This document shows, one piece after another, positions 30,133-63,941 of a stretch of 64,000 nt of DNA. The stretch spans positions 21,041,846 through 21,105,845 of the forward strand of contig NC_090414.1 in assembly GCF_036365525.1 (NCBI RefSeq). The letters are read 5' to 3'. How positions within the stretch are numbered: position 1 is the first letter of the stretch; each line of letters begins with the position of its first letter. The notes under the pieces were generated by a model, which made no database searches, was not told the DNA's origin, and saw nothing but the letters and a program-made list of their open reading frames with translations. This DNA comes from Heterodontus francisci (taxonomy: Eukaryota). A program made the translations under genes and the position numbers.

Positions 30133-33051
30133 ATGGAATTGCGAGCATCTGCCGTTACTGATTTCAACATAGATAAAGGTGAGAGGGTGTTAACGGAGGG
30201 GAGAGCTATTTTAGGGAGGAATCTTTTATATTAGATACAGAGTAAAGCTCCCTCTACACCGTCCCCCATCAAATACTCCCAAGACAGGTACAGCACAGGA
30301 TTAAATACAGAGTAAAGCTCCCTCTACACTGTCCCCATCAAATACTCCCAGGACAGGTACAGCACGGGGTTAGATACAGAGTAAAGCTCCCTCTACACTG
30401 TCCCCCATCAAACACTCCCAGGACAGGTACAGTATGGGGTTAGATACAGAGTAAAGCTCCCTCTACACTGTCCCCCATCAAACACTCCCAGGACAGGTAC
30501 AGTACGGGGGTTAGATACAGAGTAAAGCTCCCTCTACACTGTCCCCCATCAAACACTCCCAGGACAGGTACAGCACGGGGTTAGATACAGAGTAAAGCTC
30601 CCTCTACACTGTCCCCCATCAAACACTCCTGGCTCAGGGATGTTAGATGATCTCATCCTATCTTCAGTTGACATCCAATGCATGAAAGTTTCTACAGGAG
30701 ACACTGGATAGCCATGAGGAGCAGGTCCCGGGCTCCTTTGGCCCCTTCTCCTGCCCTGGGATCTGAGACTAGCTGTGTCCTCTTCTAAGTGCTGCCTTCA
30801 GCAGAGACTGCCTAACTTTAACTTGGCAGTAGAGCTTGCTCCTGCAGTATGTAAAAGCCCCAAACTGATTGTGAATCAATTGTTAAACCAGTATCCAAAC
30901 AGCGTGTGTTTTTTTTTTGCACACAAGGAAGAGGTTTGGGGTGAGGACAGGAGAGACTGAAAAACACAATTAGGGAGAGGGACTGAAAAATAGAGGTAAA
31001 GAGAGGAGGCAAATGTGACAGAGACTGGGAGAAAGAGATAGAAAGATGGAGATAAACAATGACAGATGAACAGAGTGAAAGACAAACAGGGATGGAGAAA
31101 TGGAGGGAGGTGTCACACAACCTGGGTGTACTGATTAATATAGATTGATTTATCAGTCTGTCTCTCAGTCTAGCTTTCTCCTTTAATCTTTCTCACTCTC
31201 TCTCTCTCTCTCTCCGTCTCTCACTGTCTGTAACATATCAGCCTAATCCTACCTTCGTTGTTGAAGGGTTTCAGAGAACCTGTTGCCTCCTTTTCCCCGG
31301 TCACTCCCCCCTCCCAGGCCCTGTCCCTCATCTCTCTCTCTCGCCCTCAATTCCAGTCCTGCTCTATCCCCATGGTTACTCACTCTCTCACCTTTTTTTC
31401 CTCTGACACCAATTTTGATCACTGTCAAGAACCTCTCACCGCTTCATTCTCTCCATCTCACTATTTCTTTCGCTCTGCCACTCTCCATCACTCACTTTCT
31501 CCATCTTTTTGTGTCTTTTATTCATTGTCTCCCTCTGTACGTGTCCCACTCTCCCTCTTTGTGTCTCTCTCTCCCTCAGTCTTTCTCTCTCCCTCTGTCT
31601 CTCTCACCTTCTACCTGTCTCTCTCCGTCTGTTTCTCTCTCACCATCTCTCTCTGTCTTTCTCACAGTCTTCTCTCTCAGTCTCTCTCTCTCCCTTTCTC
31701 TTTACATTGACTGTTCCAGATGTCAGTGACCATAAACCCCTCTGCACTGTGTTCAATTCTGGGCATGAGGGAGGGATGAGGGAGGGCAGAGGGTCTAATT
31801 GGATAGATAGGCACAAACACGATGGGCTAAATGGCCTGCTGCTGTGATGGTATGAACATGGAGCTGGTGGTGTCTCTGTGGGACTGCTGCCCTTGTCCTT
31901 CTAAGCAGTGGAACTTGCCGGTTTGGTGGTAAAGATTTCATCGGTCCCAGTGCCTCCCCTGGCATCTGCTCTCCTCTCACTAACTGTGTGTCTCTCTCTC
32001 TCTCGCTGCCTATTCCAGACCACCCTCCTAGCTATCCCACGGCCCACACAACATCGCAAAAGCACAAGAACTTTGTGGTGGAGCCCATGAAGGAGAAGTC
32101 TGTGAAGGAGCTGGCAGGTATCGGCCTGGTCCTGGGAGGGCGCCTGGAAGAGAAGGGCTTCTGCAAGGTGAGGCTTCGGGCTCGCTGCCCTGGTGGGGTG
32201 GGGTGGGGGGTCACAGGGTGAGTGTCACAGTGCACAGGACATGTGGCGCGGAGGGGGCTGGTGGACTGAACTTGCCTTTTGCTAAACCGCACCCACCCAA
32301 TTGTCCTCTTCAAACTCATGATGTAAGACGACAAAGCTCATCCTTAGTTGCCCTTTGAGAAGGTTGGAAGTGGGTCTCCCTCTGGATTTTGACCCAGCGG
32401 CGATGACGGAATGGCCAATATATGGGCAGAAGATCTAGGCTGACATTCCCAGTGTCAGTACCGAGGGAGTGCTGCACTGTCAGAGGCGCCGGCTTTCAGA
32501 TGGGACATGAGGAGGGGGCCCCCCCGTCAGCCCTCTCAGGTGGATGCAAAAGATCCCACGGCCACTATTTTGAAGAGGGTGGGCTCTCTCTCCCCAGTGT
32601 CCTGCTCCGATGTTTAGCCCTCAGATCACATTGCTCTGTGGGATCTTACTGTGCGCAAATCGTCTGCCCAATCTTGATGCCAAGTGACTTCAAAAATGAA
32701 TGGACTTTGTGGCTGAGCTCGGGCAGGTCAGGCCTGAGCCCAAAGGTACCCTGGGGACTGTGTGGATGGGGCCACTATGCTTAGTGTTGCATTATATATA
32801 ACATGCGCGCATACGAGAGTTTGTGCGTGCGCGAGTACTGAGATGCTTTTTGTGTGCCGAGTAGACTGTTGTTTTAATCCCTTTTGATCGGTCCCTGTTT
32901 CCAGGCCAAAGACGTGCTGGGCCAGTTCCTACTACTGAAACAGGATAAAGCTGCCTTCAAAAGCTGGATGAGGCAGGTGTGTTACGCGGGGAACCGGCAA
33001 TCAGAAGACTGTTACCGCTGCCTCAGAGAGTGGTGTGATGCCTTTCTTTAA
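30133..33051 (+). CDS. BANF1-like tandem paralog with N-terminal extension (about 113 aa predicted)
   Basis: Well-supported exons 32019-32167 ([49 protein letters not shown]) and 32905-33051 ([48 protein letters not shown]), same intron position as BANF1; AATAAA at 33199. The first coding exon 30133-30178 (aagATGg, [15 protein letters not shown], phase-1 gtgaga donor) is inferred. Confidence 0.85.
30230..30630. repeat. 70-bp satellite array (~5.5 units)
   Basis: Unit gttagatacagagtaaagctccctctacactgtcccccatcaaacactcccaggacaggtacagcacggg. Confidence 0.95.
32440..32700 (+). mobile_element. Deu-domain SINE fragment
   Basis: gagggagtgctgcactgtcagagg...caggtggatgcaaaagatcccac...gtgggatcttactgtgcgca. 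Confidence 0.7.
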
Positions 33052-33514
33052 AAGGCCTCCTACCTCGCTTAATTCACAGAGTAATAACCTCCTCGAAAAT
33101 GTCCCAATAATCCTTAAGTGTTATTTATTGATCTTTGCAGCCCAAGGTCACGAGGGGGCTTCCAGATTTTATGCTGTGTGTTTAAAAGCTGATTTATTAA
33201 TAAAACTGGCAGGCGTCAGTCTGTTTCCAAGACGAACAGCTTCCATCTTGTCCAGAAACAACATACGTAAAGACTTGCATTTTAGCGCCTCTGATGTGAC
33301 CATTAGAAACGTGACAGCAATGGAGAGAGATATCAGGTGCCTAAACAGCACGGTCTGAAGTAGATTTTAAGGAGGAAAGAGGCGGATAGATTTAAGGAGG
33401 GGATTCCAGAGCTCAGGGCCCCCCAGGCAGCTGAAGGCACGGCCGCCAATGGTGGAGCGATGGGAATCGGGGGATGGGCCAAGAGGCCGGAATTGGAGGA
33501 GCGCAGAGATCTCG

Positions 33515-34455
33515 GAGGGTTGTGGGGGCTGGAGGAGGTTACGGAGATAGGGAGGGTTGTAGGGGCTGGAGGAGGTTACAGAGATAGGGAGGGTTGTAGG
33601 GGCTGGAGGAGGTTACAGAGATAGGGAGGGTTGTAGGGGCTGGAGGAGGTTACGGAGATAGGGAGGGTTGTAGGGGCTGGAGGAGGTTACAGAGATAGGG
33701 AGGGTTGTAGGGGCTGGAGGAGGTTACGGAAATAGGGAGGGTTGGAAGAGGTTACAGAGATAGGGAGGGTTGTGGGGGCTGGAGGAGGTTACAGAGATAG
33801 GGATGGTTGTAGGAGCTGGAGGAGGTTACAGAGATAGGGAGGGTTGTAGGGGCTGGAGGAGGTTACGGAGATAGGGAAGGTTGTAGGGGCTGGAGGAGGT
33901 TACGGAGATAGGGAGGGTTGGAGGAGGTTACAGAGATAGGGAGGGTTGTAGGGGCTGGAGGAGGTTACAGAGATAGGGATGGTTGTAGGAGCTGGAGGAG
34001 GTTACAGAGATAGGGAGGGTTGTAGGGGCTGGAGGAGGTTACGGAGATAGGGAGGGTTGTAGGGGCTGGAGGAGGTTACGGAGATAGGGAAGGTTGTAGG
34101 GGCTGGAGGAGGTTACAGAGATAGGGAGGGTTGTAGGGGCTGGAGGAGGTTACAGAGATAGGGATGGTTGTAGGGGCTGGAGGAGGTTACAGAGATAGGG
34201 AGGGTTGTAGGGGCTGGAGGAGGTTACAGAGATAGGGAGGGTTGTAGGGGCTGGAGGAGGTTACAGAGATAGGGAGGGTTGTAGGGGCTGGAGGAGGTTA
34301 CAGAGACAGGGAGGGTTGTAGGGGCTGGAGGAGGTTACAGAGATAGGGGAGGGTTGTAGGGGCTGGAGGAGGTTACAGAGAGGGATGGTTGTAGGGGCTG
34401 GAGGAGGTTACAGAGATAGGGAGGGTTGTAGGGGCTGGAGGAGGTTACAGAGACG
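33515..34455. repeat. 37-bp purine-rich minisatellite grown from an L2 fragment (33360-33520)
   Basis: Unit gggagggttgtaggggctggaggaggttacagagata, ~25 copies, directly continuing the L2-like sequence. Confidence 0.93.
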
Positions 34456-34751
34456 GGGAACAAGACCATGAAGAAACTTGACAACAAGCTTGGGAATGTT
34501 AAAATCACTGAGGGAAGAATGTGGAACTCACTACCACAGGGAGTGGTTGAGGTGAATAGTATCGATGCATTTAAGGGGGAAGCTGGATAAACACGAGGGA
34601 GAAAGGAATAGAAGGAGATGGTGATGGGGAGAGATGGAGAGGGGGTGGGAGGAGGCTCGAGTGCAGCATGAACACATGGATGGAGCAGATGATGTACATT
34701 CTATGTTATCACAAAATGTGATTTTTTTTGTGCTCATCACATTGCAGAATA

Positions 34752-34956
34752 TTAGATACAGAGTAAAGCTCCCTCTACACTCTCCCCCATCAAACACTCC
34801 CAGGACAGGTACAGCACGGGGTTAGATACAGAGTAAAGCTCCCTCTACACTCTCCCCCATCAAACACTCCCAGGACAGGTACAGCACGGGGTTAGATACA
34901 GAGTAAAGCTCCCTCTACACTCTCCCCCATCAAACACTCCCAGGACAGGTACAGCA
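34752..34956. repeat. 70-bp satellite array (~3 units), truncated by the Tx1 insertion
   Basis: Same unit as 30230; breaks off at ...caggacaggtacagca. Confidence 0.95.
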
Positions 34957-35622
34957 TTGGGGTTGGCTGCTGTCTAATTGGTGTGTTGACTGCTGGTTGC
35001 AGCAACAAGCCTCAGCTGAGAGTGCTGGTGGCAGTTGGAGGTTGCTGAGGTGGAGAGAGCAGCTACACTGAGCAGCGGAAAGCTTTAACAATCACCATTA
35101 AAGAGAAGAGTCTTTTTGTTGGAACCAAGGCTTTGTCTGGAGGTGGGGGCTGAACACCAGTAATTTACTTTACTTTGGACTGTTGGGGGAAGAACAAGTG
35201 GCCGGAACAACAAGGGGTGGGGCTGCCAATTCAGCAGGAATCTGTGCTGCTGCAACAAGCACACAGGGAAGCTCCCTCCCCACACCAATTGCCCAACCTG
35301 GGTCAGCTGAAGCTATCCGGCTAAAGAGACGGAAGGGGATAGATAGTGCCTGGGCAGCTTCAGCTGACTCAGGTGAAGATACCTCCCTCAACCAGAAGAC
35401 CGGAAGACCAAGTGTGCTGGCATTGACTGTTTTAAGTGTGCTGTGTGCACCACCTCCGGAAAGCAAGTCATCCCTTACAGCCTGTCTTTCCCTCTCCTCC
35501 ATACCCTCAGCCTCTCCCCTAACATGTTGTTTGTTTTTTATAGATATTTAATATCTTCTATGAATCTTTTTGTTATTCGGTTTGCAAGCCCACAATTTGG
35601 GGTGGGTTTAGCTGTTAGACCC

Positions 35623-37565
35623 ATGGCAAGCCCTTCATCACCGGTGGCGGGGCCCTCTACAACCTATGCAGCTGCAGCCTCTGTGGCTGCCCACGTGGCC
35701 CCGTCACCCTTTAAATTGATAACATCCAGCCATGGGGTGAAGAGCTATCCCCACCCCAACATGTCCATTGAGGCCTGCATAAAGGCAATGGCCAAGGTTG
35801 TCAGCCCTTCGGCCATTGTTGCAGCTTCAAAGATGTACGGGAAGGCTGTGTTCTTCCTGAAGACCGAGCGGGTGGTGTCCCTGGCCCTGAGTAAAGGGAT
35901 CACTGTGGGGGGGACCTTCCTGCTGGTGGACCCTCTGGGGGCCACTGCGCAGCGGATCATGCTATCAAACGTCCCGCCCTTCATTCCCAGTGAGCTCCTC
36001 CTCCCCCACCTACACCATCTGGGGGAGGTGAGGTCGGAGATCACCCCAATCCCGCTCGGTCTTCGGGAGCACAGCCTCCAACATGTCTACTCCTTCCGCC
36101 GCCAGCTATTTGTGCAGCTGGCAGAGAGCCACTTCAGTGTGGAGTTCCAGGGGAAGGCCTATTGTGTCTTCTGGACCTCGGACGGGGTGCGCTGCCACGT
36201 CTGCAACCTCCCGACCGCCAACTCCATCTCGGCGTCCCAGTGTGGCGCCACTGCACCTCCTCCCACTCCCCCAAAATCTCCTACAGACACCGCTCAGTTG
36301 GTTCCGGAGGCTGTGATTTTCAAGGCCTCCGGCAGGGAGGGGAGTGCCCATCCGGGTGGAAGGAAGGCACGGAGGAAAAATAAACATCAAGAGGCGCATC
36401 GCCTGGACACATTGACACAACCCGAGCCTGAGCTCAGCCCAAGGCCCGATCTTGGGGAGCCCACTTGCCCCAGGGCTGGGCTCAGGCCTTGGGTGACTAA
36501 AAAAAAGGAGGGTGCTGAGGTGGAGGCCTCTGATGACATGGAGGTCTCTGAGCCTCTGCGCCCAACTGGGAAAAAGAGAAGGCACCCCTCCACAGAGGTA
36601 ACACAGGGCCATGAGGTGCAGGGCCCATCTGTTGGAGGGGAGCTGCCTCCTGTTTCGGGTCCCCAGGTTCCCCCTGCCACCACCCATCATCAAGGCTGCA
36701 AAGTCTGAGCAGGAGCTCCCTACCCCTCAGGATGGAGGGGAGGGGAGGGGGAGGCCCCTCCTGGAGGAGTAAGTGGAGGCCTGCTTGTGGTGGGGGAGCC
36801 TGGGGACGCATCCCATTCTGCCACTTGGTCAAGTGCCCTGAGTGGAGGGGAGGGCAGGGCCCCAAAGGGTCGGCCCTCCCGTCCGGAGTCCACCACCAAC
36901 CAGGAGATACCCCACCCAGTTGTAATTGAAAATTTTGTCCCATCTGCTGGGTCTGTGGGTGCTGGCTGAGCAGGAGATGGCCTCCTCTCTTCACCTCTGG
37001 TCCCGGCTCCAGCTGCATTTCCGGAGTTGGGAAGTTCCGTCTTCCCTGGACCGCTCATTGGCCTGGGGACGAAGGTGGAGGGGGGGGTCCTGAACCGCTG
37101 ACGCCCACAGGCTCCGGGTTCACAGTAGAACCCAGAGAGGACTCCTCTGCCATCGATCCTGGGGGTGGGATCGTGACGGAGGCGGGACCAGCTGGTACGG
37201 CCAGGACGTCCAGCCCACAGTGTGTGGTGGGTGTGCCAGCCGCTGGCGGTGACGACCCGGAGGAGGATGGGGATTCGGTGTGGGGCACGGAGGACGACCT
37301 TGATTCCATTGCCAGTGAGGTGGTGGAGTCCCTCATGCCTCCCACCGAGTCTCCTCACATCCCCACGGCGGAACTCCGGGATTTCCTCGCAGCTTGCAGG
37401 GGTTGCCGCAATAAAGTTCAGCTACCCCTCGGCCGTTGGTCGAATCTGGCGCTGATCATCCAGTCCGTCCGTGCCGCCCTCAAGAAAGTGGGCAAGGGTG
37501 CGGGCGTAAAACTGGTTGAGAGGCGCCGGTTTAATGTGTTCCTCAATGGGTTGCTGGAGGAGTGA
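35623..37565 (+). pseudogene. Tx1 ORF1 (RRM/zinc-knuckle nucleic-acid-binding protein), disrupted
   Basis: Tx1-type ORF1 motifs; knuckle reduced to CHVC; broken over frames 35443-36708, 36787-36969, 37173-37565. Confidence 0.8.
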
Positions 37566-37633
37566 AAGGCCAGGTGCACTTCCGCTCCCTCCTCACAGTG
37601 AGCTGTTGGTGACGGGTTTTAAGTACCTTTGAC

Positions 37634-40600
37634 ATGAAGATAACCATAGCCAGCCTCAACATCAACGGCAGCAGGGGGTCTCACCGCAGATTTCACAATC
37701 TCACAGTCCTCAGGGAAGGGAGATACGCGGTGAGCTTTCTGCAGGAAACCCATACCGTTCCGGGAGACGAAGCCACCTGGCTCCAGGAATGGCAGAGTGG
37801 GGTCTACATGAGTCACCTCACCCCTATTTCTAGTGGGGTGGCCCCGACTTTTCAGCCGGAGATCTTGGGGGTCAAGGAGCTAGTGCCGGGCCACTTGCTC
37901 CACCTCGTCGTTCGCCTGGGTAGCGTGCCGCTCCACTTTGTGAACGTGTACACGCCCAGGCCCGGCGCGTTGCGAGCGCGCTTCTTTGAAGAAGTGTCCG
38001 CTCTCTTGAGCTCCATCGATAGCGGCGAGTGCATCATCCTCGGGGGGGATTTTAACTGCACCCTCGAGGTGGGGGATCGCTCCGGTCCCCAGTGCGGCCA
38101 AGCGTCGGTGGAGAAGTTGAGGGAACTGATCAGCTCCCTCAACTTGTTGGACGTCTGGCGGAATCTCCAACCCGACTCCAGCGCCTTCACGTGGAGGTCT
38201 GGAGGAGGAGGGTCCCGAATTGACCACCTTGACATTTTACAGGCGTACGTCTCCCGCAACTCGGCGGCCTCCATGTGGCTGGTGCCGTGCTCGGACCACC
38301 ACCTGGTGTGGGCAGAGTTTAATCCGCTCCGCACGCGGACGGGGTCCGCGTACTGGCACTTTAACAACCGGCTGCTGGAGGATGAGCGATTCCGGGACTC
38401 GTTCTGTCGATTCTGGGCCGACTGGAGAAGGAAGCAGGGGGGGGGCTTCCCCTCCTTGAGGCTGTGGTGGGATGTGGGCAAGACTCACATTGTGGCAGGC
38501 GTACAAAGAGAAGGGCGCGCTGAGGGACCTGCAACTCATAGGGTCCCTAGGCGCGTACGTGAGGTCACGGATCCAGATCCTGGAAGATTTGGACCGCGCC
38601 TCACCCTTCTCGCTGGAAAAATGGAGAGGGGTCCGTAAGGAGCTCATCGAGCTGCTGGCCGAGGACGGATCCTCCATCACGGATCTGGAGGGAATGGGCC
38701 CCCTGGTCCGTACTTATTACAGTGCTTTGTTCTCTCCAGATCCGTCCAGCGAGGATACGCACAGAGTTTTGTGGGAGGACCTGCCGCTTTCAGACTCGGG
38801 CCGCATTTCGTGGCCCGGGTCCGACTTTTATACGCCGCCGCAGAGTGTCTAGTCAAAGTTAACGGGTCCTTGACGGCACCCCTTCAATTTGGGAGAGGAG
38901 TGTGTCAGGGATGCCCCATGTCCGGCCAACTGTACATCATCTGCGTGGAGCCCTTCCTGTGCCTGCTTCGCAGGAGGTTGACAGGATTGGCTCTGCGCGA
39001 GCCAGCCATGCGGGTCGTCCTCTCGGTTTGGGCCGATGACGTGCTCCTCGCGGTCACAGATCCCGTTGACTTGCGGAGGATGCGCGACTGCCAGCAGAAC
39101 TTTTCTGCCACATCCTCCGCGAAGATCAATTGGGAGAAATGTTCCGGTCTCCTGGTGGGTCAGTGGCGGGTGGACTCCCTGCCGGAGGAGATGACACCTT
39201 TTGCGTGGAGCACCACGCACCTCCTCTATTTGGGAGTTCACCTTAGCCCCGCTGAGGAAGCCTGGCTGGTAAACTGGCAGGAGCTGGAGTGAAAGTCACC
39301 GCTCGGCTGGGGCGCTGGACAGGACTACTCCGAGTGCTTTCCTACAGGGGCCGAGTGCTGGTCATAAACCAACTGGTGGCCTTGATGCCGTGGTACTGGT
39401 TGGTCATTTTAGCCCCGCCCCCTGCATTAGCCACCAAGATCCAGAAGAAACTCGTCGATTTCTTCTGGGGCAAGAGGAAACACTGGATCCCTGCTGCGGT
39501 CCTGAGTCTCCCGATTGAGGAGGGCGGCCAGTCGCACCCAGGCTGCGACTCTCCGCCTTCGGACCCTGCAGAGATATCTGTATGTCGAGCGTCCTCCCAA
39601 ATGGTGTGCGCTGGCGACGTATTTTTTCCGCAGTGTCATTGCCTTCAAGACGACACGCAGCTCCCGGCGGAGACCGTTAGCCGCGCCACTCTGAGGGAGT
39701 TGCCTGTCTTTTACCAGGATCTACTTTGAGTCTGGAACATGGTCGCCTCCAGTCAGGGCGCTCCCCCGCTGGCGGAGGAGAGCGCCTCGGCTGTCCGGGC
39801 GGCCAACTCCGGGGACGGACCGGCAGGCGGAGGAATAGCCGAAGCCCCCGGGACGCCCCTCACTGCGGGTGGCGAGGGGGCGCGGGACAGCAGACTGCTC
39901 CTGGCCAAGCTGCTCCCTGCTCGGCCGGAACTGCTGATCGGACCCAGGTCCCGAAACCCTCCTCGGAGCCGGTCCCGCACAACCCGAGCCGCCTCTCAGA
40001 AACGCCCTCCGTGCCATTCCAATCGGCACGGAGGGGTTTCCTGTACGGGCTGGCTGCTCCTGCACACTCTCCACTTCCTCGCCCTCGTCAGCCGACCGGA
40101 CACGCCCTGGTGGTCCGCGTTGCCATCTGGCGGCGAGGGGAAACCCCGATGGAGGTCTCTCTACGCGGGAGTCTTCCCCCTTTACATCGGGGACCTGGGA
40201 TGGAGGGTGTTGCACAGGGCAGCCCCGTGCAATAGACTTTTAAGTAGGTTCACGGACTCCCAGGCCACCTGTACTTTCTGCGGCCTGGATGAGTCCGTGT
40301 TCCATGTAAATATGGAGTGTGCGAGGTTGCAGCCCCTATTTGAGTATTTGAAGGGGCTGCTCCTCAAGTTCTGGCTGCACTTCAGTCCCACGCTCCTGAT
40401 CTTTGGGCACCCGGTGCGATGGGGCGTGGGCCGGGAGGAGGATCTCCTCGTCGGTCTGCTGCCGGGCCTGGCCAAGGTGGCAATTCACAGGTCCAGGTTG
40501 CGGGCTGTCGGGGGGGGGGGTCCGTCCTCCCTGATTGCGCAGTTACGTTTGCCCCGGGTGTCCCTGGAGAAGGAGCATGCGGTGTCCGCTGGTACGCTTG

Positions 40601-40674
40601 AGGCCTTCCGTGACCGGTGGGCACCACAGGGACTGGAGTGCATTGTCGACGCCGAGAATGGCATTTTAATTTGA
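37634..40674 (+). pseudogene. Tx1 ORF2 (APE endonuclease-reverse transcriptase), frameshifted with internal deletions
   Basis: SLNING, FLQETH, GGDFNC, SRID, SDHH (APE); GVCQGCPMSGQLY and WADD (RT); CTFCGLDESVFHVNMEC (zinc finger). N-terminal RT motifs are missing near 38790. Confidence 0.9.
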
Positions 40675-40711
40675 GTTTTTGGTTTATTTATCTGGTTTTA
40701 ATAAAGTTAAA

Positions 40712-41050
40712 GGGCGGCACAGTGGTTAGCACCGCCGCCTCACAGCTCCAGGGACCCGGGTTTAATTCCGGGTACTGCCTGTGTGGAGTTTGCAAGTTCT
40801 CCGTGTCTGCGTGGGTTTCCCTCCGGGTGCTCCGGTTTCCTCCCACAAGCCAAAAGACTTGCAGGTTGGTAGGTAAATTGGCCATTATAAATTGCCCCTA
40901 GTTTAGGTAGGTGGTAGGGAAATATAGGGACCAGTGGGGATGTGGTAAGAATATGGGATTAGTGTAGGATTAGTATAAATGGGTGGTTGATGGTCGGCAC
41001 AGACTCGGTGGGCCGAAGGGCCTGTTTCAGTGCTGTATCTCTGAACTAAA
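40712..41050 (+). mobile_element. HE1-like tRNA-derived V-SINE nested in the Tx1 3' UTR
   Basis: gggcggcacagtggttagcacc...gggacccgggtttaattcc (A/B boxes), V-domain gtgtggagtttgca...gtgtctgcgtgggtttcc...ggtttcctcccaca, tail gggccgaagggcctgtttcagtgctgtatctct. Confidence 0.85.
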
Positions 41051-41698
41051 AAATTATTTTAAAAAATATGTATATAAAGGGGGCCTGAGGAATAAAGGCC
41101 CCCTCGACATGAAACATATAAAAGGGGCCTGGGGTATAAAGGCCACCTTTAAATAAAAAAAGGGGTTAGACACAGAGGAAAGCCTCCATTCTTCCAACTG
41201 ACTTTTACAGAGACAATGCACAAAACACAAAACAGTTGATAATACAGGAAATACATTTATTAGATAAATGAATACAAGGCTATATAAAACAGTAATACTT
41301 AGTGCTTGACTGAGCAAGTACCAGTGGACTACCCATTCCACAGCAGAGGGAGCAGGGTTTAACCAAGGCTGATTGATTCTCTGACAGACAGCACTGAAGT
41401 AGCTGCAAGTGGTTAAAAATTCCTACTGGTTATTGTGTGTGTGTTAGGTGCAGCAGATCGTGTGCTTTGGTGAAGCAGCTGGCTAGGCCTTGGGACTGTC
41501 CATCTTCTCAACGTGTGAGCGGTCCAGTTTGGGTTAAGGTGACTGCAAGCACACAGCGACGTCGGGACAGGAGTGCCACACCAAGCTCTTCACCCCCTCG
41601 GATATGAAATGGTGATTATTATTGCACTAGAGAAGCGTGGGACCCAGCTGCTGGCACTTGCCTGGGCAGGGGGCGTGACGGACGCTGGCTTGGTGGAG

Positions 41699-44600
41699 TT
41701 ACTCTTGCTGGATGCGCCGGCATTTCTGTTTCTCCACGGTCATTGGGCCAACCCATGGCTGGTCCCAGATCTTGAAGCTGCAGATGACATGCTAACGGAA
41801 CATACATCAACATTAGTATCAGGCTGCAGACGCTCAACCCAAACACGACCGAGTACCCAATACCATGTCACCCAACAGCTGATACCCACCGCCGCCCTCC
41901 CCTGTTTCTCTTACCTTGGAATACTGCGGGTGCTGGTGGAAGGCACACTGGTTGAGCTTGACATTCTGTCCCCTGGTCTTCCTGCAGGTGGTCGTTGCCA
42001 GCTCCAACTTCAGATGGTACATTAAGCCCGCCACCACCTGAGAGAAAGAGGGCACCCACCAACTTTCAGTGGCAGAGACAAGGCGAAGCAGTAACTACCA
42101 ATGCCCTCCCCAATCCCGAAACTAACTTAAGGAGGCATGCAGTGAAATCCTTGTGCATGGTTGTGGCCCAATTCCCCACCCCCTTCATGTGGCTACAATT
42201 GGCCTCAGGGTCCCTACATGAGGGGAGGGGAGGGACAAATCCTGCTTCTAATCACTATCCAGCCACTTCTGATGAAAACTTCATGTACAGAACTGCCCTT
42301 CAAATATTTCTTTTTTGGAGGGGGAGGGGGGGGGGCGTGGTGTACGATGCTGGATTTAAATGTCCCACTGTATGTCAACATTTCCCATGCAATTTTGCTA
42401 TGTAAACTGTCACAGTGTAGTTATGGGCTCTGGCCACCTGGTGGCACTGTGGAGTGAGCAACTGAAGTCTCCCTCCCAAATTTGTCATGTTACAAATTAA
42501 CGTTACCCCACCTTCACCTGACACTGGGCTATTCGACAGCGTAGAAGACTATAAACATAAACTATGCTGTTACACTGGACATACAGAATATGAAAATATT
42601 TGCTCCTGACAAGGCACTTAAACAGAACGATTAAAACTGCATCTTTCTGTATCCACCGTTCACCAATCCATCCCAATGGAATATTAACATAAACAGCCCT
42701 CAACCTATCAGAATTCATTGCTTCCTGATGCTGCATCCCTCACCCGGACCTCGTTATCTCCCTCTCCCCAACATCTACCCAGTCATTCCCAAGACCTCGA
42801 AACCCTCCCTCCATTCCTTTGTTCCATCCTCTCTTTTCCCCTCCACCCCTAACACTTCCCATTTCCTCTTCCCTTCCCAACCCCACCTCCCCTCCTTATC
42901 CCTCTTCCAAAAGCTCTCCACCTCCCTCCTTCAACACCCTCCAAACCTTCTCTACAAACTGCTCCCCCCGTTTTCTCTCTCACCTCTTCTAACAGCCCCC
43001 AGCTCACTTCCCTTCACCCCCACTCCTCCTCCCTTCCCTCATCCCACCTCCCTGTACCCCTCCAAAACATCCTTCCTCCCCCTCCCTCCCCCCTTCCGCT
43101 TTTCTTTTCCCTCACTCCCCTCCTTGTCCCCTCCCCCCTCTCTCCCTCTTGTCTTTCCCCTCGCTGCCCCTCTCCCCCATCCTCTAATTCCCCCGCTCCC
43201 TTCCCTGCCCCTCCCCATCTCTCCCTCTTTTCTTTCCCCACTCCCCATCCCCTCCCCATCTCTCCCTCTTTTTCCCCCCACCATCTCTCCCTCTTTTCTT
43301 TCCCCTCACTCCCCCCCTCCCTCTTTTCTTTCCCCGCCCACTCCCCCCTCCCCATCTCTCCCTCTTTTCTTTCCCCTCACTCCCCCTCCCCATCTCTCCT
43401 TCTTTTCTTTCCCCTCACTCACCCATCCCCATCTCTCCCTCTTTTCTTTCCCCTCACTCCCCCCCCTCCCCATCTCTCCCTCTTTCTTTCCCCTCACTCC
43501 CCCCCCTCCCCATCTCTCCCTCTTTTCTTTCCCCTCACTCCCCCCCTCCCCATCTCTCCCTTTTCTTTCCCCTAACTCCCCCTCCCTCTTTTCTTTCCCC
43601 TCACTCCCCCCCTCCCCATCTCTCCCTCTTTTCTTTCCCCTCACTCCCCCCCTCCCCATCTCTCCCTTTTCTTTCCCCTAACTCCCCCTCCCTCTTTTCT
43701 TTCCCCACTCCCCTCTCCCTTTTTTCTTTCCCCTCACTCCCCCCTCCCTTTTTCTTTCCCCTCACTCCCCCCTCCCAATCTCTCCCTTTGTTCCTTCCCC
43801 ACTCCGCCCCTCCCTTTTTTCTTTCCCCTCACTCCCCCTCCCCATCTCTCCCTTCGTTCCTTCCCCACTCCCCCCCTCCCTTTTTTCTTTCCCCTCACTC
43901 CCCCTTCCCCATCTCTCCCTTCGTTCCTTCCCCACTCCCCCCCTCAGTTTTTTCTTTCCCCTCACTCCCCCCTCCCCATCTCTCCCCTTTTCCTTCCCCA
44001 CTCCCCCCTCCATTTTTTCTTTCCCCTCACTCCCCCCTCCCCATCTCTCCCTTTTTTCCTTCCCCTCACTCCCCCCTCCCCATCTCTCCCTTTTTTCCTT
44101 CCCCACTCCCCCCTCCCTTTTTTCTTTCCCCTCACTCCCCCCTCCCCATCTCTCCCTTTTTTCCTTCCCCACTCCCCCCCTCCTTTTTCTTTCCCCTCAC
44201 TCCCCCCTCCCCATCTCTCCCTCTTTTCTTTCCCCTCACCCCCCATCCCCATCTCTCCCTCTTTTCTTTCCCCTCACTCCCCCCCCATCTCTCCCTCTTT
44301 TCTTTCCCCTCACTCCCCCCCTCCCCATCTCTCCCTTTTCTTTCCCCTAACTCCCCCTCCCTCTTTTCTTTCCCCTCACTCCCCTCTCCCTTTTTTCTTT
44401 CCCCTCACTCCCCTCTCCCTTTTTTCTTTCCCCTCACTCCCCCTCCCTTTTTTCTTTCCCCTCACTCCCCCCTCCCCATCTCTCCCTTTGTTCCTTCCCC
44501 ACTCCGCCCCTCCCTCTTTTCTTTCCCCTCACTCCCCCCCTCCCCATCTCTCCCTCTTTTCTTTCCCCTCACTCCCTCTCCCTTTTTTCTTTCCCCTCAA

Positions 44601-46526
44601 TCCCCCTCCCTTTTTTCTTTCCCCTCACTCTCCCCTCCCCATCTCTCCCTTCGTTCCTTCCCCACTCCGCCCCTCCCTTTTTTCTTTCCCCTCACTCCCC
44701 CCTCCCCATCTCTCCCTTCGTTCCTTCCCCACTCCCCCCTCCCTTTTTTCTTTCCCCTCACTCCCCCCTCCCCATCTCTCCCTTTTTTCCTTCCCCACTT
44801 CCCCCTCCCTTTTTTCTTTCCCCTCACTCCCCCCTCCCCATCTCTCCCTTTGTTCCTTCCCCACTCCCCCCCTCCCTTTTTTCTTTCCCCTCACTCCCCC
44901 CTCCCCATCTCTCCCTTCGTTCCTTCCCCACTCCCCCATCCCTTTTTTCTTTCCCCTCACTCCCCCCTCCCCATCCCTCCCTTTTTTCCTTCCCCACTCC
45001 CCCCTCCCTTTTTTCCTTCCCCACTCCCTTTTTTCTTTCCCCTCACTCCCCCCTCCCCATCTCTCCCTTCGTTCCTTCCCCACTCCCCCCTCCCTTTTTT
45101 CTTTCCCCTCACTCCCCCCTCCCCATCTCTCCCTTCGTTCCTTCCCCACTCCCCCCTCCCTTTTTTCTTTCCCCTCACTCCCCCCTCCCCATCTCTCCCT
45201 TCGTTCCTTCCCCACTCCCCCCTCCCTTTTTTCTTTCCCCTCACTCCCCCCTCCCCATCTCTCCTTTTTTTCCTTCCCCACTCCCCCCTCCCTTTTTTCT
45301 TTCCCCTCACTCCCCCCTCCCCATCTCTCCCTTTTTTCCTTCCCCACTCCCCCCTCCCTTTTTTCTTTCCCCACTCCCCCCTCCCTTTTTTCTTTCCCCT
45401 CACTCACCCCTCCCCATCTCTCCCTTTTTTCCTTCCCCTCACTCCCCCCTCCTCCCTCTTTTCCTTCCCCTCACTCCCCCCTCCTCCCTCTTTTCTTTCC
45501 CCTCACTCCCCCCTCTTTTCTTTCCCCTCACTCCCCCCTCCTCCCTCTTTTCCTTCCCCTCACTCCCCCCTCCTCTCCCTCTTTTCTTTCCCCTCACTCC
45601 CCCCTCTTTTCTTTCCCCTCACTCCCCCCTCTTTTCTTTCCCCTCACTCCCCCCTCCTCCCTCTTTTCCTTCCCCTCACTCCCCCCTCCTCTCCCTCTTT
45701 TCCTTCCCCTCACTCCCCCCTCCTCCCTCTTTTCTTTCCCCTCACTCCCCCCTCCTCCCTCTTTTCTTTCCCCTCACTCCCCCCTCCTCCCTCTTTTCTT
45801 TCCCCTCACTCCCCCCTCCTCCCTCTTTTCTTTCCCCTCACTCCCCCCTCCTCCCTCTTTTCTTTCCCCTCACTCCCCCCTCCTCCCTCTTTTCTTTCCC
45901 CTCACTCCCCCCTCCTCCCTCTTTTCTTTCCCCTCACTCCCCCCTCCTCTCCCTCTTTTCTTTCCCCTCACTCCCCCCTCCTCCCTCTTTTCTTTCCCCT
46001 CACTCCCCCCTCCTCCCTCTTTTCTTTCCCCTCACTCCCCCTCCTCCCTCTTTTCTTTCCCCTCACTCCCCCCTCCTCCCTCTTTTCTTTCCCCTCACTC
46101 CCCCCTCCTCCCTCTTTTCTTTCCCCTCACTCCCCCCTCCTCCCTCTTTTCTTTCCCCTCACTCCCCCCTCCTCTCCCTCTTTTCTTTCCCCTCACTCCC
46201 CCCTCCTCCCTCTTTTCTTTCCCCTCACTCCCCCCTCCTCTCCCTCTTTTCTTTCCCCTCACTCCCTCCTCCTCGCACCTGCTGGCTGGCGGACAGCACC
46301 CTCCGCACTTTGCTGTAATAAACATCGTTGGACTGGCGGTTGAAGGCCTTGACGGCCACGGAGGCCGCACTCAGCACCGCCGGATCCTGGACAGGCAGGG
46401 GCGAGAGGCCGCCGGGCATAACGGCCTGGCCGGGCATGCTGGGGTCGCTTTCGCCGCCGGCCGGGAGCAGGAGCAACAACACGGCGGCGCCCAGCAACTT
46501 GGCCCAACTCTCACCGCAGCCGCCAT
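41699..46526 (-). CDS. Type 2 cystatin, probably cystatin E/M (CST6) ortholog; start codon ambiguous
   Basis: Exon 1 ~46526-46279 (signal [18 protein letters not shown]; [15 protein letters not shown]...[22 protein letters not shown]), exon 2 42037-41915 ([20 protein letters not shown]...[11 protein letters not shown]), exon 3 41791-41699 ([30 protein letters not shown]). G, QVVAG and PW motifs, four Cys, three-exon layout; AATAAA (minus) at 41256-41261; CST6 neighbours BANF1 in human. Confidence 0.88.
42740..46272. repeat. Polypyrimidine/polypurine minisatellite in cystatin intron 1
   Basis: Almost G-free plus strand; units such as cttttctttcccctcactcccccctcctccct (32 bp) and longer composite units. 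Confidence 0.95.
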
Positions 46527-46605
46527 CTTCAATACGCAGCCGGAATTCCACTTCCGCCCGCACTGGAGTCACATCCGCCCCGCTGCCGCTGATCCGCCAT
46601 CTTTG
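46520..46605 (-). promoter_or_regulatory. Promoter elements of the cystatin gene
   Basis: Two YY1 consensus motifs (cgccatctt at ~46521 and ~46596), ETS cttccg at 46551, GC box ccgccc; CpG-rich. Confidence 0.55.
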
Positions 46606-48287
46606 TGAGGGCAAACCGGCCAACACCATAGAAGCCACCCCAGCTAGTGCAGACACTAGCAGCGACTTGTTGGACCGAATGGCCTGTTTCCATACTGTAA
46701 AACGCTGGGTAATTCGATGTAAATCAGGGAAGGCAGGCTGCAGGGCCGAGGCCTTCTGCCATGTATTTTCATTCTGGCTCCAGGGCTGAGGGACTTGGGA
46801 GAGACTGGGAGAAGCTGGGATTGAGCAGAGAAGGTTAAGAGGAGATTTAATAGAGGCGTTCAAAATCATGAAGGGTTTCGAGAGAGTAAATAAGGAGAAA
46901 CTGTTCCCCGTGGCAGGAAGGCTGGTAACCAGAGGGACACAGATTTAAGATAATTGGACAGAGGGGGGGGGGGGGAGAGGAGGAGATTCACCATGAATGA
47001 GAGATGCTGTGGGGCACACGCTCAGTCCAAGAGGGGCAACCGACATCAGAAATAAACCCCAACTGTCAGCATGATCATGGTTCAGTCCTGAATGTGATTA
47101 ACAGCAACAAGTCGAATCCAACCCTTGTAATCACCTGTGACCTCGCTGGTGTCTCAGCAGGTCGGATAACTGAGTGAATCCCTTGAAGTGGGCTGTTGTG
47201 ATCTGGAATGCGCTGCCTGACCGGAGAGTGGAAGCATTCGGCGCCTCTCAAAAGGCAACTGGATAAATACTTGAAAAGTAAAAAACAACTGCAGGGTTAT
47301 GGGGAAAGAGCGGGGCGGGTTTGGGAAACGATTTTGGAATCATCTTTCAAAGAGCCGACACAATGGGCCAAATAGCGGCCTCCTGTCCGGTACAGTTCTG
47401 TGACACCGAGGAGGACTCGCTTAATCTTCTAATAGTTGGCCGTGGGATCCTTTATGCCCACCGGATGTGCAGTTATCCAACTTTGGGATAACTTTCGCAG
47501 TTTCTTGCATGCTGGGAGCAGGGAGCACCCTCAGCTGAACGCCGACTACCCTACCCTACACGACAGTAATAAAACCAGCTCTCCCAGTGGTCAGTAAAGC
47601 ACGAGTCATTGGAAAACTTCCCCTAAAAATGTCTTTATTCAGAGTGAGATGGTCAATCACGCTCCCCCCCCCCCCCCACCACCACCGAATACATTCTCCC
47701 GTCTCCACATGCCACCGAGTCTCATTAACAGCAGCAGAGGGGGGAGGGGAAAGCAACAACGGAGAAGACTGGCATCTTCCTAGATTATTATCTACACAGA
47801 TTTCAACACACACGACGATTCTCCCGGCCAGTACAGGCGAGGCTCCCTCCGCCGACTCGAAACCGAAAATTCTGGCAAGACGAGAGCGCGGAATTCTTTC
47901 CCGAAAAAAATTGTGGGTTTTTTCTCAAATTTTATTTCACATTTTACTAAAAGTAAAAATTTAAAATAATGCCAAGTGGGTCAGCCACTGGTGACTTCTG
48001 CACAAGTGCATGGCCCACCTCACTCATCTTTGCCATCCTTTCTCTCTCTCTCTCTCATTCTCTCTCCATCCACTTATTTTTTGGAAGGGAGGGGTATCAG
48101 AGGGCTGTGTTTTTGGAAGGGGGGGGGAATTCCGTGCACAGAGTAAACACCGCGAGGGGATAAAATAGTTTAAGAACTGCAACTCAAGACGCAGTAAATA
48201 AAACAACCCGAGAGGAAGCTAAACCCCAGAGGAACAAATATGAAAAAAAATACATCTGGAAAGAAGAAACAGACGCGCTCACAAACA

Positions 48288-48391: not shown

Positions 48392-51300
48392 CTAAGAGTC
48401 ATAATCGTCATCTTCCTCGCCATCTTGACTGCAGACCATTGGGGCGGGCGCTGGCATCGGCAGGTTGCTCATCACTGGTGAACACATGGGCATTGGCAAC
48501 ACTGGCAGAGGAGTGCTGAAGACTGACTCGGGGCTGCAGGAGACAAGTGAAACAGAGTCTGTGGTTATACCTTTTGCCACCTCCCAAAGCACTTCACAGC
48601 CAATGGGGTAGAGTGTTCCATCACGTCTACAGCACGCGGACAGGCCATTCGGCCCATCTGGTCTGTGGCAGGCCTTTACGCTCCATGCAAACCTTCCCCC
48701 ACTCCCCCTCTCCGTCTCACCCCATCAGCATACCCTTCTATTCCTTTGTTGATTGAGGGATAGATATCGGTTCAAGGGCACGGGGGGCGGTTGGGCGTGG
48801 AGAACTCCCCTGCTCTTCCTTAAATAGTGGCCGAGGGACCTTTCACAGAGGGCAGACGGGGAGGCCTCAATTTAACTGCGTTGGGCCTCAGGACTACACC
48901 AGGCGAGATCAGTTAACTGTGCAGTGGCCGAGGATGGAATCCCGCTGCTCCGCCTGATTTGGTTAACTCCACGTTCCAATTCAGCACCAATTTAGATTCA
49001 TGGAAAATTATCCTTGGAAAAACCAACACCTTCAGACAGGTTGCACAGCGCACGGGAAGAGTGTTTCGGTTTAGCCTCCCCACTGCTCAACACAGAGCTT
49101 GGGGGCACAAGACAGCAGGTTCTGCCACTCTCCGACCAGCAGCAGGATCTGCTAAGGCGGGCTCCCTGACGGGTGACATGTCACGAGCAGCCACCAACCT
49201 CTGAATTTTGTCTCCGGGTCTGTCCGTGCTGGACCGAGACACCTCTTCCTCGTCCGTGTCACTGTCCTCGGACTCGTCCTGTTGGCACAAAGTGACAAAA
49301 TTGGGAATTCAGCAGGTATTCTCCAGCGCGTTGGTCCACTGTGCACGAACCATTGTGGCGCATGAGCTATTTGACAGTAGAAGCATCGCACTACACCAGA
49401 AAGCTAGTTGAAGGATTATGCCGGAGCCAATCTTTACTTAATCTTACATTTATTTTACAAAGTAACAAGTTTACAAACATGCAGCTCCTCACTCAGTTCA
49501 CCCAGTTTCAGTAATTGTCTCCTTATAAAAACTCAAGTAAAACCCTACTCAACACCCGCCATCTGCATATTATTAAACACAATTAACAATTGCGGTCATG
49601 CCCTATCCAGTCATGGGGCGGGGTATCGTGGCTAAGTGGAATTCGACCACATGGGCATCACAGCCACGTACTATTCACACACGGGTCAACGCAATCATTG
49701 TCTGCGATGCCAGGCTGGGCCAAACTTGGAGTGCGATCGGGGTGGGGGGGTGGTGGGGGGGGTTGCTACAGACTGACTCACCTCCTGTTCCGATTCCGTA
49801 CTCGACTGCTTCTTGTCCTTCCCTTTCGCCCCGGCCCCTCCATTTGTGTTTCTCCGCCCAGACCCGGGCTTCCTCCCCCTGGTAATGACACAAAGACGAG
49901 TTCAAGCGTGAATAATACATTCCAGCGTTAAACCAGTCCAATCCCTCCCTCTGGGCACCACCCCCCCCCCCCCACTTCCTCCTCCAGGAGCAGGCTCTCG
50001 CTGGTGTTCAGCTCGGCGGACAGCCTCGGGTACTGTGGTCAGTCGACTGTGGGGGGCATCACAGCCCGCATCTTCCAGCGGGGGCAACATAGAGCAGGAA
50101 AAAGGTTCAGGCCTGTACTAACACAGAACAGGCCGACGATGGGGAGAGAGAGTGAATGAGTGCGAGTGTCTGTCTCAGTACATCGAGGAAGGGGAAGGGG
50201 GATTGCTGTCCTTTAACCTCTCAGCACCTACCTGCGTGGGGTCTTGTCCCCTTCCATGTGGTTGTCCTCATTATCGCCCTGTATGTCTGGCACAGAGGCT
50301 ACTAAGTCCTTCAGGAAGTCAAACTGCTGCTCCAGCTCAATGCACTGCTTCCTGGAAGCAAACATCCCATAATGTTAACATTATGCTCTCCCTTACCATC
50401 AGCACTCTTCCCCCAGCTATCTTCTGACCCCGAGCTGACCTTCAAAACAACGCCCCCCCCCCACCACCCCGTACCCTCCAAAATCCCCAGGACTGCCTTC
50501 ATAACATCACCGTCCCTGCCTCTGCAACCCTTCTGCGACAGGGAGGTTGATTAATTGTATGCTCTGGGTTGTTACTCTGTGACACCCGCTGTACTGTGCC
50601 AACGCAGAGGGAGGTCAGAACCACAGGTTCAAAGGTCAGCTGGCATTCGCCCCCTAGACTGTCATAAAACTCCCAGGACAGGTACAGCACGGGGGTTAGA
50701 TACAGAGTAAAGCTCCCTCTACACTGTCCCCCATCAAACACTCCCCAGGACAGGTACAGCACGGGGGTTAGATACAGAGTAAAGCTCCCTCTACACTAAA
50801 AAAAAAAAAAAAAAAAAAACGGGGGTTAGATACAGAGTAAAGCTCCCTCTACACTGTCCCCATCAAACACTCCCAGGACAGGTACAGCACGGGGGTTAGA
50901 TACAGAGTAAAGCTCCCTCTACACTGTCCCCATCAAACACTCCCAGGACAGGTACAGTACGGGCGTTAGATACAGAGTAAAGCTCCCTCTACACTCTCCC
51001 CATCAAACACTCCCAGGACAGGTACAGAACGGGGGTTAGATACAGAGTAAAGCTCCCTCTACACTGTCCCCATCAAATACTCCCCAGGACAGGTACAGTA
51101 CGGGGGGGTAGATACAGAGTAAAGCTCCCTCTACACTGTCCCCCATCAAATACTCCCAGGACAGGTACAGCACGGGGGTTAGATACAGAGTAAAGCTCCC
51201 TCTACACTGTCCCCCATCAAATACTCCCAGGACAGGTAAAGCACGGGGGTTAGATACAGAGTAAAGCTCCCTCTACACTGTCCCCATCAATGCATTCTCA

Positions 51301-57371: not shown

Positions 57372-58157
<786 letters not shown>

Positions 58158-60678: not shown

Positions 60679-63600
60679 CTACTGTGTCTCATAGATCTTG
60701 TTTATCTCGGAGGAGTTCATCAGCTCAAAGCTCTGGGAAAAGAGGGACATAAAGTGCTCCTCTTCCGTGTTATCGGCCAGGAAAGCGGCTGTAGGCTCCA
60801 GGTCCCCATTGAGCGCCCCCTCCCCGGGATCGGCCTTCTCGTCTTCCTGGTTGCTGGCCATGAGCTTCAGGATGTCGGGCGAGTAGCTCATCAGGGTGGT
60901 GGTCTGCATACTGCTGGCCAAGCCATCCAAATTGAAATCGGGCATCAGGGTTCTCTGTAGGTTGTGCTGCTGCTGCGGGTTCACCATCTCCTGCCTCAGC
61001 ATTTCCCGGAAATCCATGTTGTCGATGGAGCCCAGGCTGACGCACTCCCCCTCCTGCCCCATCAGGGCCCCTCCGACCAGGAACTGATCCATCGAGCTGG
61101 GCCCGTCGGTCAGGTACAGCTCGGGCTTGGCCATGCAGGGGGCATTCGAGCCGCCCCCACCACCGCCTCCTCCTCCTCCTCCCCCCATGTCCTGGCTGAG
61201 CTGGAAGGAGGTGCCGAACAGCTCGGTCACGTCGATAGTGGAGAAGGCGTTGGGGACGTTGGCGACGTCGGGGGCCTTGCTCGCAAAGGCGAAGGGGCTC
61301 GCCATCTGCCCGGCCCGGTTGTCTGTCACTGCCGGGGTCAGGTAGTAAGGCTGTTGGGGGGCGGGAGTGGGCACCGTGGAGGCCGTGGCAGCTGCCTGGG
61401 GGTGGCAGGTGCCGGTGGAGAAGCGGTCAAGCGGTTGGTAGCCGATGTTGGCCGGCACGGTCCCTCCCAGGAGGTCCGGAGCGTTCCCACCTGAGGAGAC
61501 ACAAAAGAGAGCAGGAGACCCTCGTTAAACACCTCGTAAATTAATCCCACCGGACCATATCGCACAAACCCCCACCTTCTCCCTGTATCTCATCCCCCCA
61601 CCCCCCCCCCCGCGCCACCCAATCTCACTGCCCCACTCCCCACAACCCACCCACAGCAAACGGTTAAATGAACCGCCAACCTCTCTGGCCGAGTTTCTCG
61701 TATAGTTTGGATTTGGCCGCTCTGTTGTCGTTTGTGACTCGATGGGGCATCGCGATGGGTCGCTGGGCAGGGGGTGCACCTGGGGGGGGGGAGGGGGGGG
61801 GAGAAAGAGAGGTCACAGGTCAGGAAGGCAAGCCAATCATTACACATTAAAATACAATATATATATATTTTTTTAAATGAGATAGACAGACCGTGGCAGA
61901 CAGACAACAATGAGCTCCTCACCCTGCATGTTGCATTTCTGAAGCATGTTCATAAATTCGATGTGTGTTTTACGCCGTTTCTCCTGGGTGCCGTAGGGAT
62001 CTGTTTTTTTTTTATTTAAAAGAAAAAAGAGAAATCATATTTGGAACAACCCCCGCACAGACACTGCGTGGCCCAAGATAATGAACATACGTTGATGCAA
62101 TCATTGAGGCACTGAATCAGAGGAGAGTGGATTCTGCACACACTCCGGGAATGATTTCTGATCACCGCAGAGCAGAATCCTGTCAAGAACAGCCCTTTGC
62201 GTGCGTCAAGCAAGACTATTCAACTGTGGGGATCGTCACCTCCCACCTGATTGGGCCCTCAATGGAAGCATCCTCGCGCGCGCACAAGCCCTTACACACT
62301 TGACAGCTAGCATCCATGCAGATAGGATGTTTGAATCGAGTGTGCACACTCCCAAATGTTAGGCAGGTAAAATAAGTCATCGCAAGATCGCCACTTGTGG
62401 ACCCCCCCACCCCCCACCGCCCACCGCGCGCGTCACAGTGAAGTGTTGCATCGTTAGGAGGGGCTGCGGCCAACGTCCAAGCCCAGTCCAGAGGCTCAGC
62501 CAACCCCTAGAGGCGCACGCATTCCCAGAAGGAGCAGTGACCGGCAGCAAGAACCTCTGGCTGATTCCTCCCTCCCCACAAAGGCAGAGGCAAACTGCAG
62601 CTCGTGCTCCCACCGAGGTTGGAACCTTCCAGGGCGCACAGCTCAACACAGAACTGCGAGGGGCCTCGGGGGGGGGGGGGGGGGACGTGGCGAGGCAGCG
62701 AAGGGCGCGGTTCCCCGCCTGCCGGGAGCAGCTACCTTTATCGTCGGGCAGATACTGGAACTCCATGGCGTCGCTGACTTCCTTGTCCGACGGGCGGCGG
62801 AGCTGCATGTGGACTGTGACGGGCTGGCTCAGCGTCACGTCCCTGTAGGGCGGGGTCTTGAACACAATGGCCACCTGCCTGTGGACGTCTGCCTGAGAGA
62901 AGGACCCCTTCCCTTCCCAGTCGTTGGTGAAGAATCGCACCTCAATATCCTCTGATCGCGGAGGGGGGGGGACGCGGGATGGCGGAGGGAGAGAGAAGAA
63001 CATGGGTTACAGCTGGCCTTCCACCTCACCCAAACCCACCCCCTTCACTCCCCACCCACCCACATCCCATGAGGCATCGGCCCATTGCACAGGGACAATT
63101 TTCATGCCCTTCCCAAGTCCGGGATGGATTTGACCATGTCCGGTTTAAACTGCTCATATCACCCACTCCCGCCAGCAGGCCGAGCCAGAACCCGTCTTCC
63201 CCACACACAATATTCCAATCACCTTTCTGAACTTTGTCACACAGCAGAAAGATCTCCTCTCCGCCCTTACAGCTCCCAGAGTTCTTGTTCACACGACAGA
63301 TCTTCAGCTCTGCGGTGTTCGGGGCCCCTGAAATCGGAGAAAGTAATCCCTTCAAAACGCTGGCCATTATCGCACAAGGCGATGTTAGATACAGAGTAAA
63401 GCTCCCTCTACACTGTCCCCATCAAACACTCCCAGGACAGGTACAGCACAGGGGTTAGATACAGAGTAAAGCTCCCTCTACACTGTCCCCATCAAACACT
63501 CCCAGGACAGGGACAGCACGGGGTTAGATACAGAGTAAAGCTCCCTCTACACTGTCCCCATCAAAAAAAAAAAGACGGGGGTTAGATACAGAGTAAAGCT

Positions 63601-63941
63601 CCCTCTACACTGTCCCCCATCAAACACTCCCAGGACAGGTACAGCACGGGGTTAGATACAGAGTAAAGCTCCCTCTACACTGTCCCCATCAAACACTCCC
63701 AGGACAGGTACAGCACGGGGTTAGATACAGAGTAAAGCTTCCCCTCAAACTGAGATGGAGACAGTCTGGTACCCGTTTCTACGGTGATTCTCCTACTCAC
63801 GGTTGTCATAGATTGGGTTGGAGACGACAGGCGGAAGGGGCGCTTTGCAAATCCCAAGCTCGTTGGGAAGAAAGACTTGGAAGCAGAGCCGGACCACGTT
63901 CAAATCTTCCTCTGTCTCGTTCATCAACTCCTCTGGTGAGA
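60679..63941 (-). CDS. RELA: NF-kB p65 (RelA), 3' portion; gene begins beyond the window end
   Basis: Exons 63941-63801 ([14 protein letters not shown]...SNPIYDNR), 63327-63223 ([34 protein letters not shown]), 62951-62736 (EDIEVRFF...[20 protein letters not shown]...[10 protein letters not shown]), 62000-61923 (NLS EKRRKT), 61779-61681 (RPIAMPHR), 61490-60679 (transactivation region). RelA-like TA motifs [13 protein letters not shown] and [11 protein letters not shown] plus 11q13 synteny favour RELA over REL. Confidence 0.88.
63385..63745. repeat. 70-bp satellite array (~5 units) with internal poly(A) tract
   Basis: Same unit; A11 at 63563-63573. Confidence 0.95.

Follow-up and report, generated by a model that had tools for sequence, protein, structure and literature searches.

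Poly(A) tracts in a 70-bp shark satellite as probable footprints of Tx1-type target-primed reverse transcription

Two A-tracts in a dispersed 70-bp satellite

In one array of a 70-bp minisatellite of the horn shark, a pure run of 22 adenines stands where the repeat unit normally carries a 34-nt spacer. The question raised by this locus is which process could have written such a tract into a tandem repeat. The window, by which we mean the whole 64-kb stretch of DNA analysed here, contains five pieces of the repeat, all on the plus strand and 1,637 bp in total (Table 1). The initial annotation had described an A22 tract in place of about half a unit, within a base or two of a Tx1 3′ junction, and this description was confirmed in the assembled sequence. 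The tract is bounded by ...CCCTCTACACT on the left and CGGGGGTTAGATACAGAG on the right, it takes the place of the 34 nt that lie between these anchors in a normal unit, and the satellite picks up again at C-GGGGGTTAG, 1 nt off the 3′ junction of a dead LINE in the window. The 37 nt to the left and the 37 nt to the right of the tract are identical. Among the 20 A/T runs of at least 8 nt in the window A22 is the longest, followed by a T14. The left end of the scar is devoid of an A seed, so slippage alone does not yield A22; simple slippage from the AAA of the unit was therefore ruled out for this scar, in which 33-34 bp are also gone.

Table 1. Positions of the satellite arrays, the scars and the LINE within the window
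Feature	Position	Strand	Remarks
70-bp array	30231-30629	+	scar-free
70-bp array 5′ of the LINE	34752-34964	+
GGGGTT	34959-34964	+	probable 6-bp target-site duplication (or the LINE's own 5′ end); repeated at 41162-41167
Dead LINE, assigned to the Tx1L subgroup	34965-41161	+	APE endonuclease, RT, zinc-binding domain, two 3′ stem-loops, AATAAA, A7 tail
Diverged 22-bp satellite stub 3′ of the LINE tail	41162-41183	+	91% over 22 nt
70-bp minisatellite array with scar 1	50650-51290	+	degenerate left end
Scarred unit 1	50768-50825	+	58 bp; normal unit 70 bp
AGTAAA, putative variant polyadenylation hexamer of the unit	50778-50783	+	14 nt before A22
Scar 1, pure A22 replacing the 34-nt spacer	50798-50819	+	assembled sequence
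70-bp array with scar 2	63385-63745	+	between two exons of a minus-strand Rel-homology gene (intron position inferred)
Scarred unit 2	63524-63581	+	58 bp
Scar 2, A11	63563-63573	+	starts from the unit's own CAAA, followed by GA-CGGGGG; absent from the initial annotation

The second scar lies in another array, so that 2 of the 20 complete satellite units in the window carry one. Its start coincides with a C/A step, and its junction is 3 nt away from that of the LINE. RHD_dimer matches were found in 62380-63006 and 63029-63421, and from the position of the array to the right of both we infer that it is intronic. An apparently single-exon gene on the plus strand, which we take to be Bles03 (C11orf68-like), is arranged tail to tail with the Rel-homology gene (57381-58157 and 60679-63900). 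A cystatin-domain exon was seen on the minus strand at ~46270-46530.

The satellite arrays have further features in common. Three of the four arrays with an intact left end (30231, 34752 and 63385) begin exactly at TTAGATACAG, after ATA, ATA and ATG, respectively, and their right ends differ. This shared start, the varying right ends and the uniform plus orientation suggest that the arrays themselves may be mobile, with a fixed terminus (the minus strand ending in CTCTGTATCTAA). On the minus strand, the terminal CTAA/T is a candidate Helitron-like end. No target-site duplications flanking whole arrays were detected; the longest words shared by the flanks were of 4-6 nt and did not abut the arrays. 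Outside the arrays, a lone exact 15-nt match to GGGGGTTAGATACAG of the satellite is located at 22328-22344 on the minus strand. The window also comprises a 14.3-kb array of a 33-bp unit (~424 copies, 7221-21511), further arrays with units of 35, 37 and 32 bp and a 3-kb C/T-rich tract.

The satellite motif was found neither in viral contigs nor in metagenome contigs (0 in each set), and three single 18-mer matches in bacterial genomes were taken as chance. Proteins P0087 and P0088 include satellite-like translated pieces, which are probably mis-predicted exons from related fish. Satellite-derived peptides, used as a route to further loci, gave 19 candidates, none of which was scored, and two later peptide hits were discarded as uninformative, being satellite-like pieces without the lysine run. 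Unit motifs had no match in the literature. A literature search, with Repbase, Dfam and most subscription journals outside its scope, returned neither a satellite-targeting Tx1 element of sharks nor this 70-bp unit.

The neighbouring LINE and the coincidence of junctions

The LINE matches Exo_endo_phos (5e-12), RVT_1 (3e-13) and zf-RVT (6e-4, below the cut-off) in Pfam, and a tblastn search with the Tx1L ORF2 gave a collinear alignment. Its identity to the Xenopus TX1 149-kDa protein (P0134) amounts to 56% in the reverse transcriptase and 45% in the endonuclease. In a reverse transcriptase tree (27 rows, 166 columns, midpoint root, without an L1 row) the LINE falls into a six-row clade that includes P0134, with a support of 100/100. 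These data assign the LINE to the Tx1L subgroup. Over 71% of the query, its endonuclease shares 90% identity with a horn-shark gene model; for a skate model the value is 67%. The copy in the window is dead: its ORF2 is broken and measures 3,041 nt versus 3,924 nt (~0.9 kb short), and for ORF1 only broken frames without a Pfam match were recovered at ~35620-37600. An Rfam scan of 30000-42000 returned no U2 piece, the two matches obtained being attributed to chance. As neither a U2 target nor a U2 head was found, an identity as Keno or another U2-headed Tx1 element was rejected. A distant reverse transcriptase fragment at 26726-27292 is 25% identical to Tx1-group proteins.

Compared with Tx1L and turtle relatives, the endonuclease lacks several residues in its beta-hairpin loop (FTWRSGGGGSRID, 38160-38230). 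The short loop is common to the shark and skate relatives and may go along with a changed target. Among endonuclease relatives in metagenomes (57 loci), the best segment was 24-40% identical, and none of these loci contained a 14-mer of the satellite. In the 3′ UTR two near-identical GGGGCC...GGCC stem-loops (41072-41150) have a z score of -3.3 against shuffled sequences and are a candidate recognition signal for the reverse transcriptase. Upstream of them, a SINE-like insert (40712-41053) carries a tRNA-like head, as judged by eye, and a tail ending in GCTGTATCTCTGAACTA6. Relatives of this tail occur at ~24397-24432, 46664-46699 and 48628-48667, and CTGTATCT is present both in it and at the end of the satellite arrays on the minus strand.

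At its 3′ end the LINE has an AATAAA that abuts the A7 tail (41155-41161), followed by GGGGTTAGACAC; its 5′ side reads TACAGCA-TT-GGGGTT. Altogether, three A-tailed junctions, that of the LINE and those of the two scars, lie on one strand, at distances of 0, 1 and 3 nt from a common G-run. Inside the satellite, which makes up 2.6% of the window, 2 of the 10 A/T runs of at least 10 nt were found (P = 0.026). Both satellite A-runs end no more than 3 nt away from the position of the LINE junction (P = 0.01 for a uniform distribution over the unit), and a random insertion would land in the satellite 2.8% of the time. All of these P values were calculated post hoc. No A/T run longer than 7 nt was present in five other tandem arrays (20,450 bp, including the 14.3-kb one). 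Run counts, junction positions and the empty other arrays taken together, the A-runs are tied to the satellite and to one position in its unit.

This arrangement matches what target-primed reverse transcription (TPRT) would leave, with A-tracts on the sense strand of the LINE that end 1 and 3 nt from the site, the site itself being set by one insertion. On the strand that would be nicked, the scar site reads CCCCG/T or CCCC/G, versus 5′-TTTT/AA-3′ for the L1 endonuclease consensus (as given in PMC4859970). L1 was rejected as the agent on account of this difference. The initial annotation had regarded scar 1 as independent support for site-specific cleavage of the satellite. One LINE and two scars of equal unit length, all in one window, give a weak hint in this direction.

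Readings of the scars

Insertion at fixed sites in multicopy repeats has been described for Tx1L, Keno and Tx1-Mar, and satellites are among the known Tx1 targets (PMC4494074, Fig. 3 legend). In vitro, nicking by the Tx1L endonuclease is almost confined to its own site (PMC1950540). Of 124 disease-causing insertions mediated by L1, four consisted of poly(A) only, three of them with a deletion (PMC4859970, Table 1). Given these precedents for fixed sites and for poly(A)-only insertions, together with a site unlike that of L1, TPRT by Tx1-type machinery is the best family of explanations, and with its deletion, duplication and retrocopy forms taken together we consider it fairly likely. In the preferred form, a LINE of the Tx1L subgroup would nick the bottom strand of the 70-bp unit at or beside CAGCA/C/GGGG, and reverse transcription would be primed at the nick on the poly(A) tail. 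At position 50798 the reverse transcriptase would have halted within the tail, and repair would have linked the A-tract with the target at the cost of 33-34 bp upstream, leaving A22 without a LINE body. A second such event at 63563 would have removed ~21 bp and been joined through the unit's own AAA. With the copy in the window dead, an active sister copy would have to exist or to have existed recently. To poly(A)-only TPRT with loss of target bases by a LINE of this subgroup we assign a probability of roughly 0.4.

The tandem context conceals the outcome. Since 37 nt are identical on each side of A22, an A-run with a 34-bp deletion, an A-run with a 36-37-bp duplication and a retrocopy of satellite RNA give the same letters. 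If nothing was lost, poly(A)-only TPRT would have duplicated a long stretch of the target site, 36-37 bp at scar 1 and 45-48 bp at scar 2, as the identical flanks of A22 would allow. Long staggers are known, for instance 126 bp in R9, but APE LINEs usually duplicate 10-20 bp (PMC6895275), and the LINE of the window shows 6 bp at most. Moreover, the flanking stretch is identical in most units of the array, so the identity around A22 says little, and the two copies at scar 2 are not alike, with differences in two homopolymers (G4/G5 and C4/C5). We regard a long duplication as very improbable. The third history, in which Tx1 proteins would have copied a polyadenylated satellite RNA into the Tx1 site as an orphan 3′ transduction, is less improbable but still unlikely. 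Its source could be Tx1 read-through past a weak signal into a downstream array, or a transcript of a plus-strand array, cut and polyadenylated after AGTAAA. The insert would then consist of satellite and poly(A), so that only the A-run would be visible and the array would gain DNA. Among 12 hexamers tested AGTAAA is the sole match in the unit, and it lies on the plus strand, 14 and 23 nt upstream of the A-runs. Cleavage takes place mostly after CA, 15-30 nt downstream, with AGUAAA as a weaker variant of the signal (PMC4844933). Scar 2, with its start at C/A, agrees with this, whereas scar 1 at 14 nt is not at CA and falls marginally beyond the cited range. The AATAAA of the LINE, placed directly against the tail, also favours a retrocopy. 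L1 has been described to undergo read-through and 3′ transduction and to leave inserts of transduced sequence only (PMC3514663), and 3′ transduction is also on record for the site-specific R7Ag and R1Bm (PMC7265360). However, the LINE copy in the window has no second A-run downstream, a G/U-rich downstream element is not evident by eye and the source element is not traceable. Two of two starts within a 10-30-nt interval correspond only to P = 0.09.

The equal length of the scarred units bears on readings that dispense with Tx1 or with a second event. In both scars exactly 22 nt separate CTACACT and CGGGGG, in register, and an identical 58-bp length in two independent events would have a chance of ~0.02-0.06 (for assumed spreads of 5-15 nt). 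With both units at exactly 58 bp the scars are perhaps not independent and may represent one event plus conversion. One A-rich 58-bp variant unit that arose once could have been spread and in part overwritten by gene conversion, or a hairpin break or slippage could have been repaired with A-rich filler. For a single event it also speaks that scar 2 looks like a normal unit on its left and an A-run on its right, and that it has a G5 where four of the five other scored G-runs of its array are shorter. Yet a comparison of units in the two arrays revealed no diagnostic variants common to the neighbour units of the two scars. Hairpin repair would be favoured by a CTGTCC/GGACAG inverted repeat of the unit, which is covered by the lost segment, but the unit folds no better than shuffled sequences (z = -0.87 and -1.16) and special folding was rejected. 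In addition, readings of this kind leave the match to the LINE junction and the common strand to chance, and we hold them to be improbable. That the runs are artefacts of assembling or base-calling a repeat array appears somewhat less probable still. An equal net length seen twice could be systematic, but no such run occurs in the 20,450 bp of other arrays with the 14.3-kb one among them, the flanks of A22 are perfect, the window contains no N, no adapter-like sequence follows the runs by eye, and if the runs were artefacts, nothing would make them end at the LINE junction.

Coming back to the deletion form of TPRT, further observations argue against it as well. The only long insertion here, the LINE, has a probable 6-bp duplication and no deletion; the junctions are not identical (0, 1 and 3 nt), with GA preceding the target at scar 2; and the sole LINE copy in the window is old and broken, yet A22 looks young. 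The initial annotation had proposed an extremely 5′-truncated TPRT product with target deletion. The TPRT part of this proposal gained from the neighbour of the Tx1L subgroup, from an A-run that is on the strand of its tail and ends at its junction, from the second scar and from the L1 precedents for poly(A)-only insertion with deletion, whereas the target deletion here is one of three equal readings and runs counter to what the LINE itself displays. The scars are present in the assembly and are probably a footprint of Tx1 TPRT, an event of known type in a new context.

Implications and comparison with known systems

If the scars are real and common (2 of 20 units in the window), they would allow integrations of a site-specific vertebrate LINE that were aborted or stay hidden to be counted. 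With the right junction fixed and the left one variable, thousands of natural events would then map first-strand nicking and second-strand resolution, an integration step of which understanding is said to be poor (PMC6895275). The scars would also suggest a Tx1 endonuclease whose target is G/C-rich. A retrocopy would mean a germ-line, RNA-based route to minisatellite growth. It is doubtful, though conceivable, that Tx1 proteins reverse transcribe RNA of the satellite, cleaved after AGTAAA and polyadenylated, into the Tx1 site of other units. Such a loop would have the LINE build its own target, with the A-runs as seams of a satellite retro-amplified in the germ line. With a single converted variant or an artefact, the finding would be ordinary.

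Each ingredient of the explanation is already known from other systems. Like Xenopus Tx1L, Keno and the crocodilian Tx1-Mar, the LINE of the window has inserted into a multicopy repeat, and its ORF2 groups with Tx1L. It differs from them in its target, a dispersed 70-bp elasmobranch minisatellite. A family has been classed as target-specific when one and the same repeat flanks more than 20% of its copies (PMC4494074); of the shark family one copy was seen, flanked by the 70-bp satellite. The duplication of ~6 bp compares with 16 bp for SINEU-3 (PMC4494074), and relative to Tx1L the endonuclease has the shorter beta-hairpin loop and a U2 head is absent.

The expansion of HSATII, as cited in PMC12112567, resembles the retrocopy reading in that satellite RNA is copied back into satellite arrays. 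It is somatic and occurs in cancer cells, and the available text of PMC12112567 describes no site-specific LINE or poly(A) mark. L1 orphan 3′ transductions and the 3′ transduction by R7Ag and R1Bm likewise involve read-through RNA, a downstream poly(A) signal and a 5′ truncation that removes the whole element. In the shark, under the same rival reading, donor and target would be one and the same repeat, so that the insert would be hidden within the array.

A parallel to the preferred reading, TPRT with loss of target bases, is given by the poly(A)-only L1 insertions in COL4A6, AGA, BRCA2 and NF1 (PMC4859970). These also consist of an A-tract of tens of bases without an element body, and three of the four have a deletion without a duplication. 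They are found in unique genes at sites of the TTCT/A type, and the deletions measure 2-13 kb, whereas the shark scars occupy a G/C-rich site in a tandem unit and change it by tens of bases.
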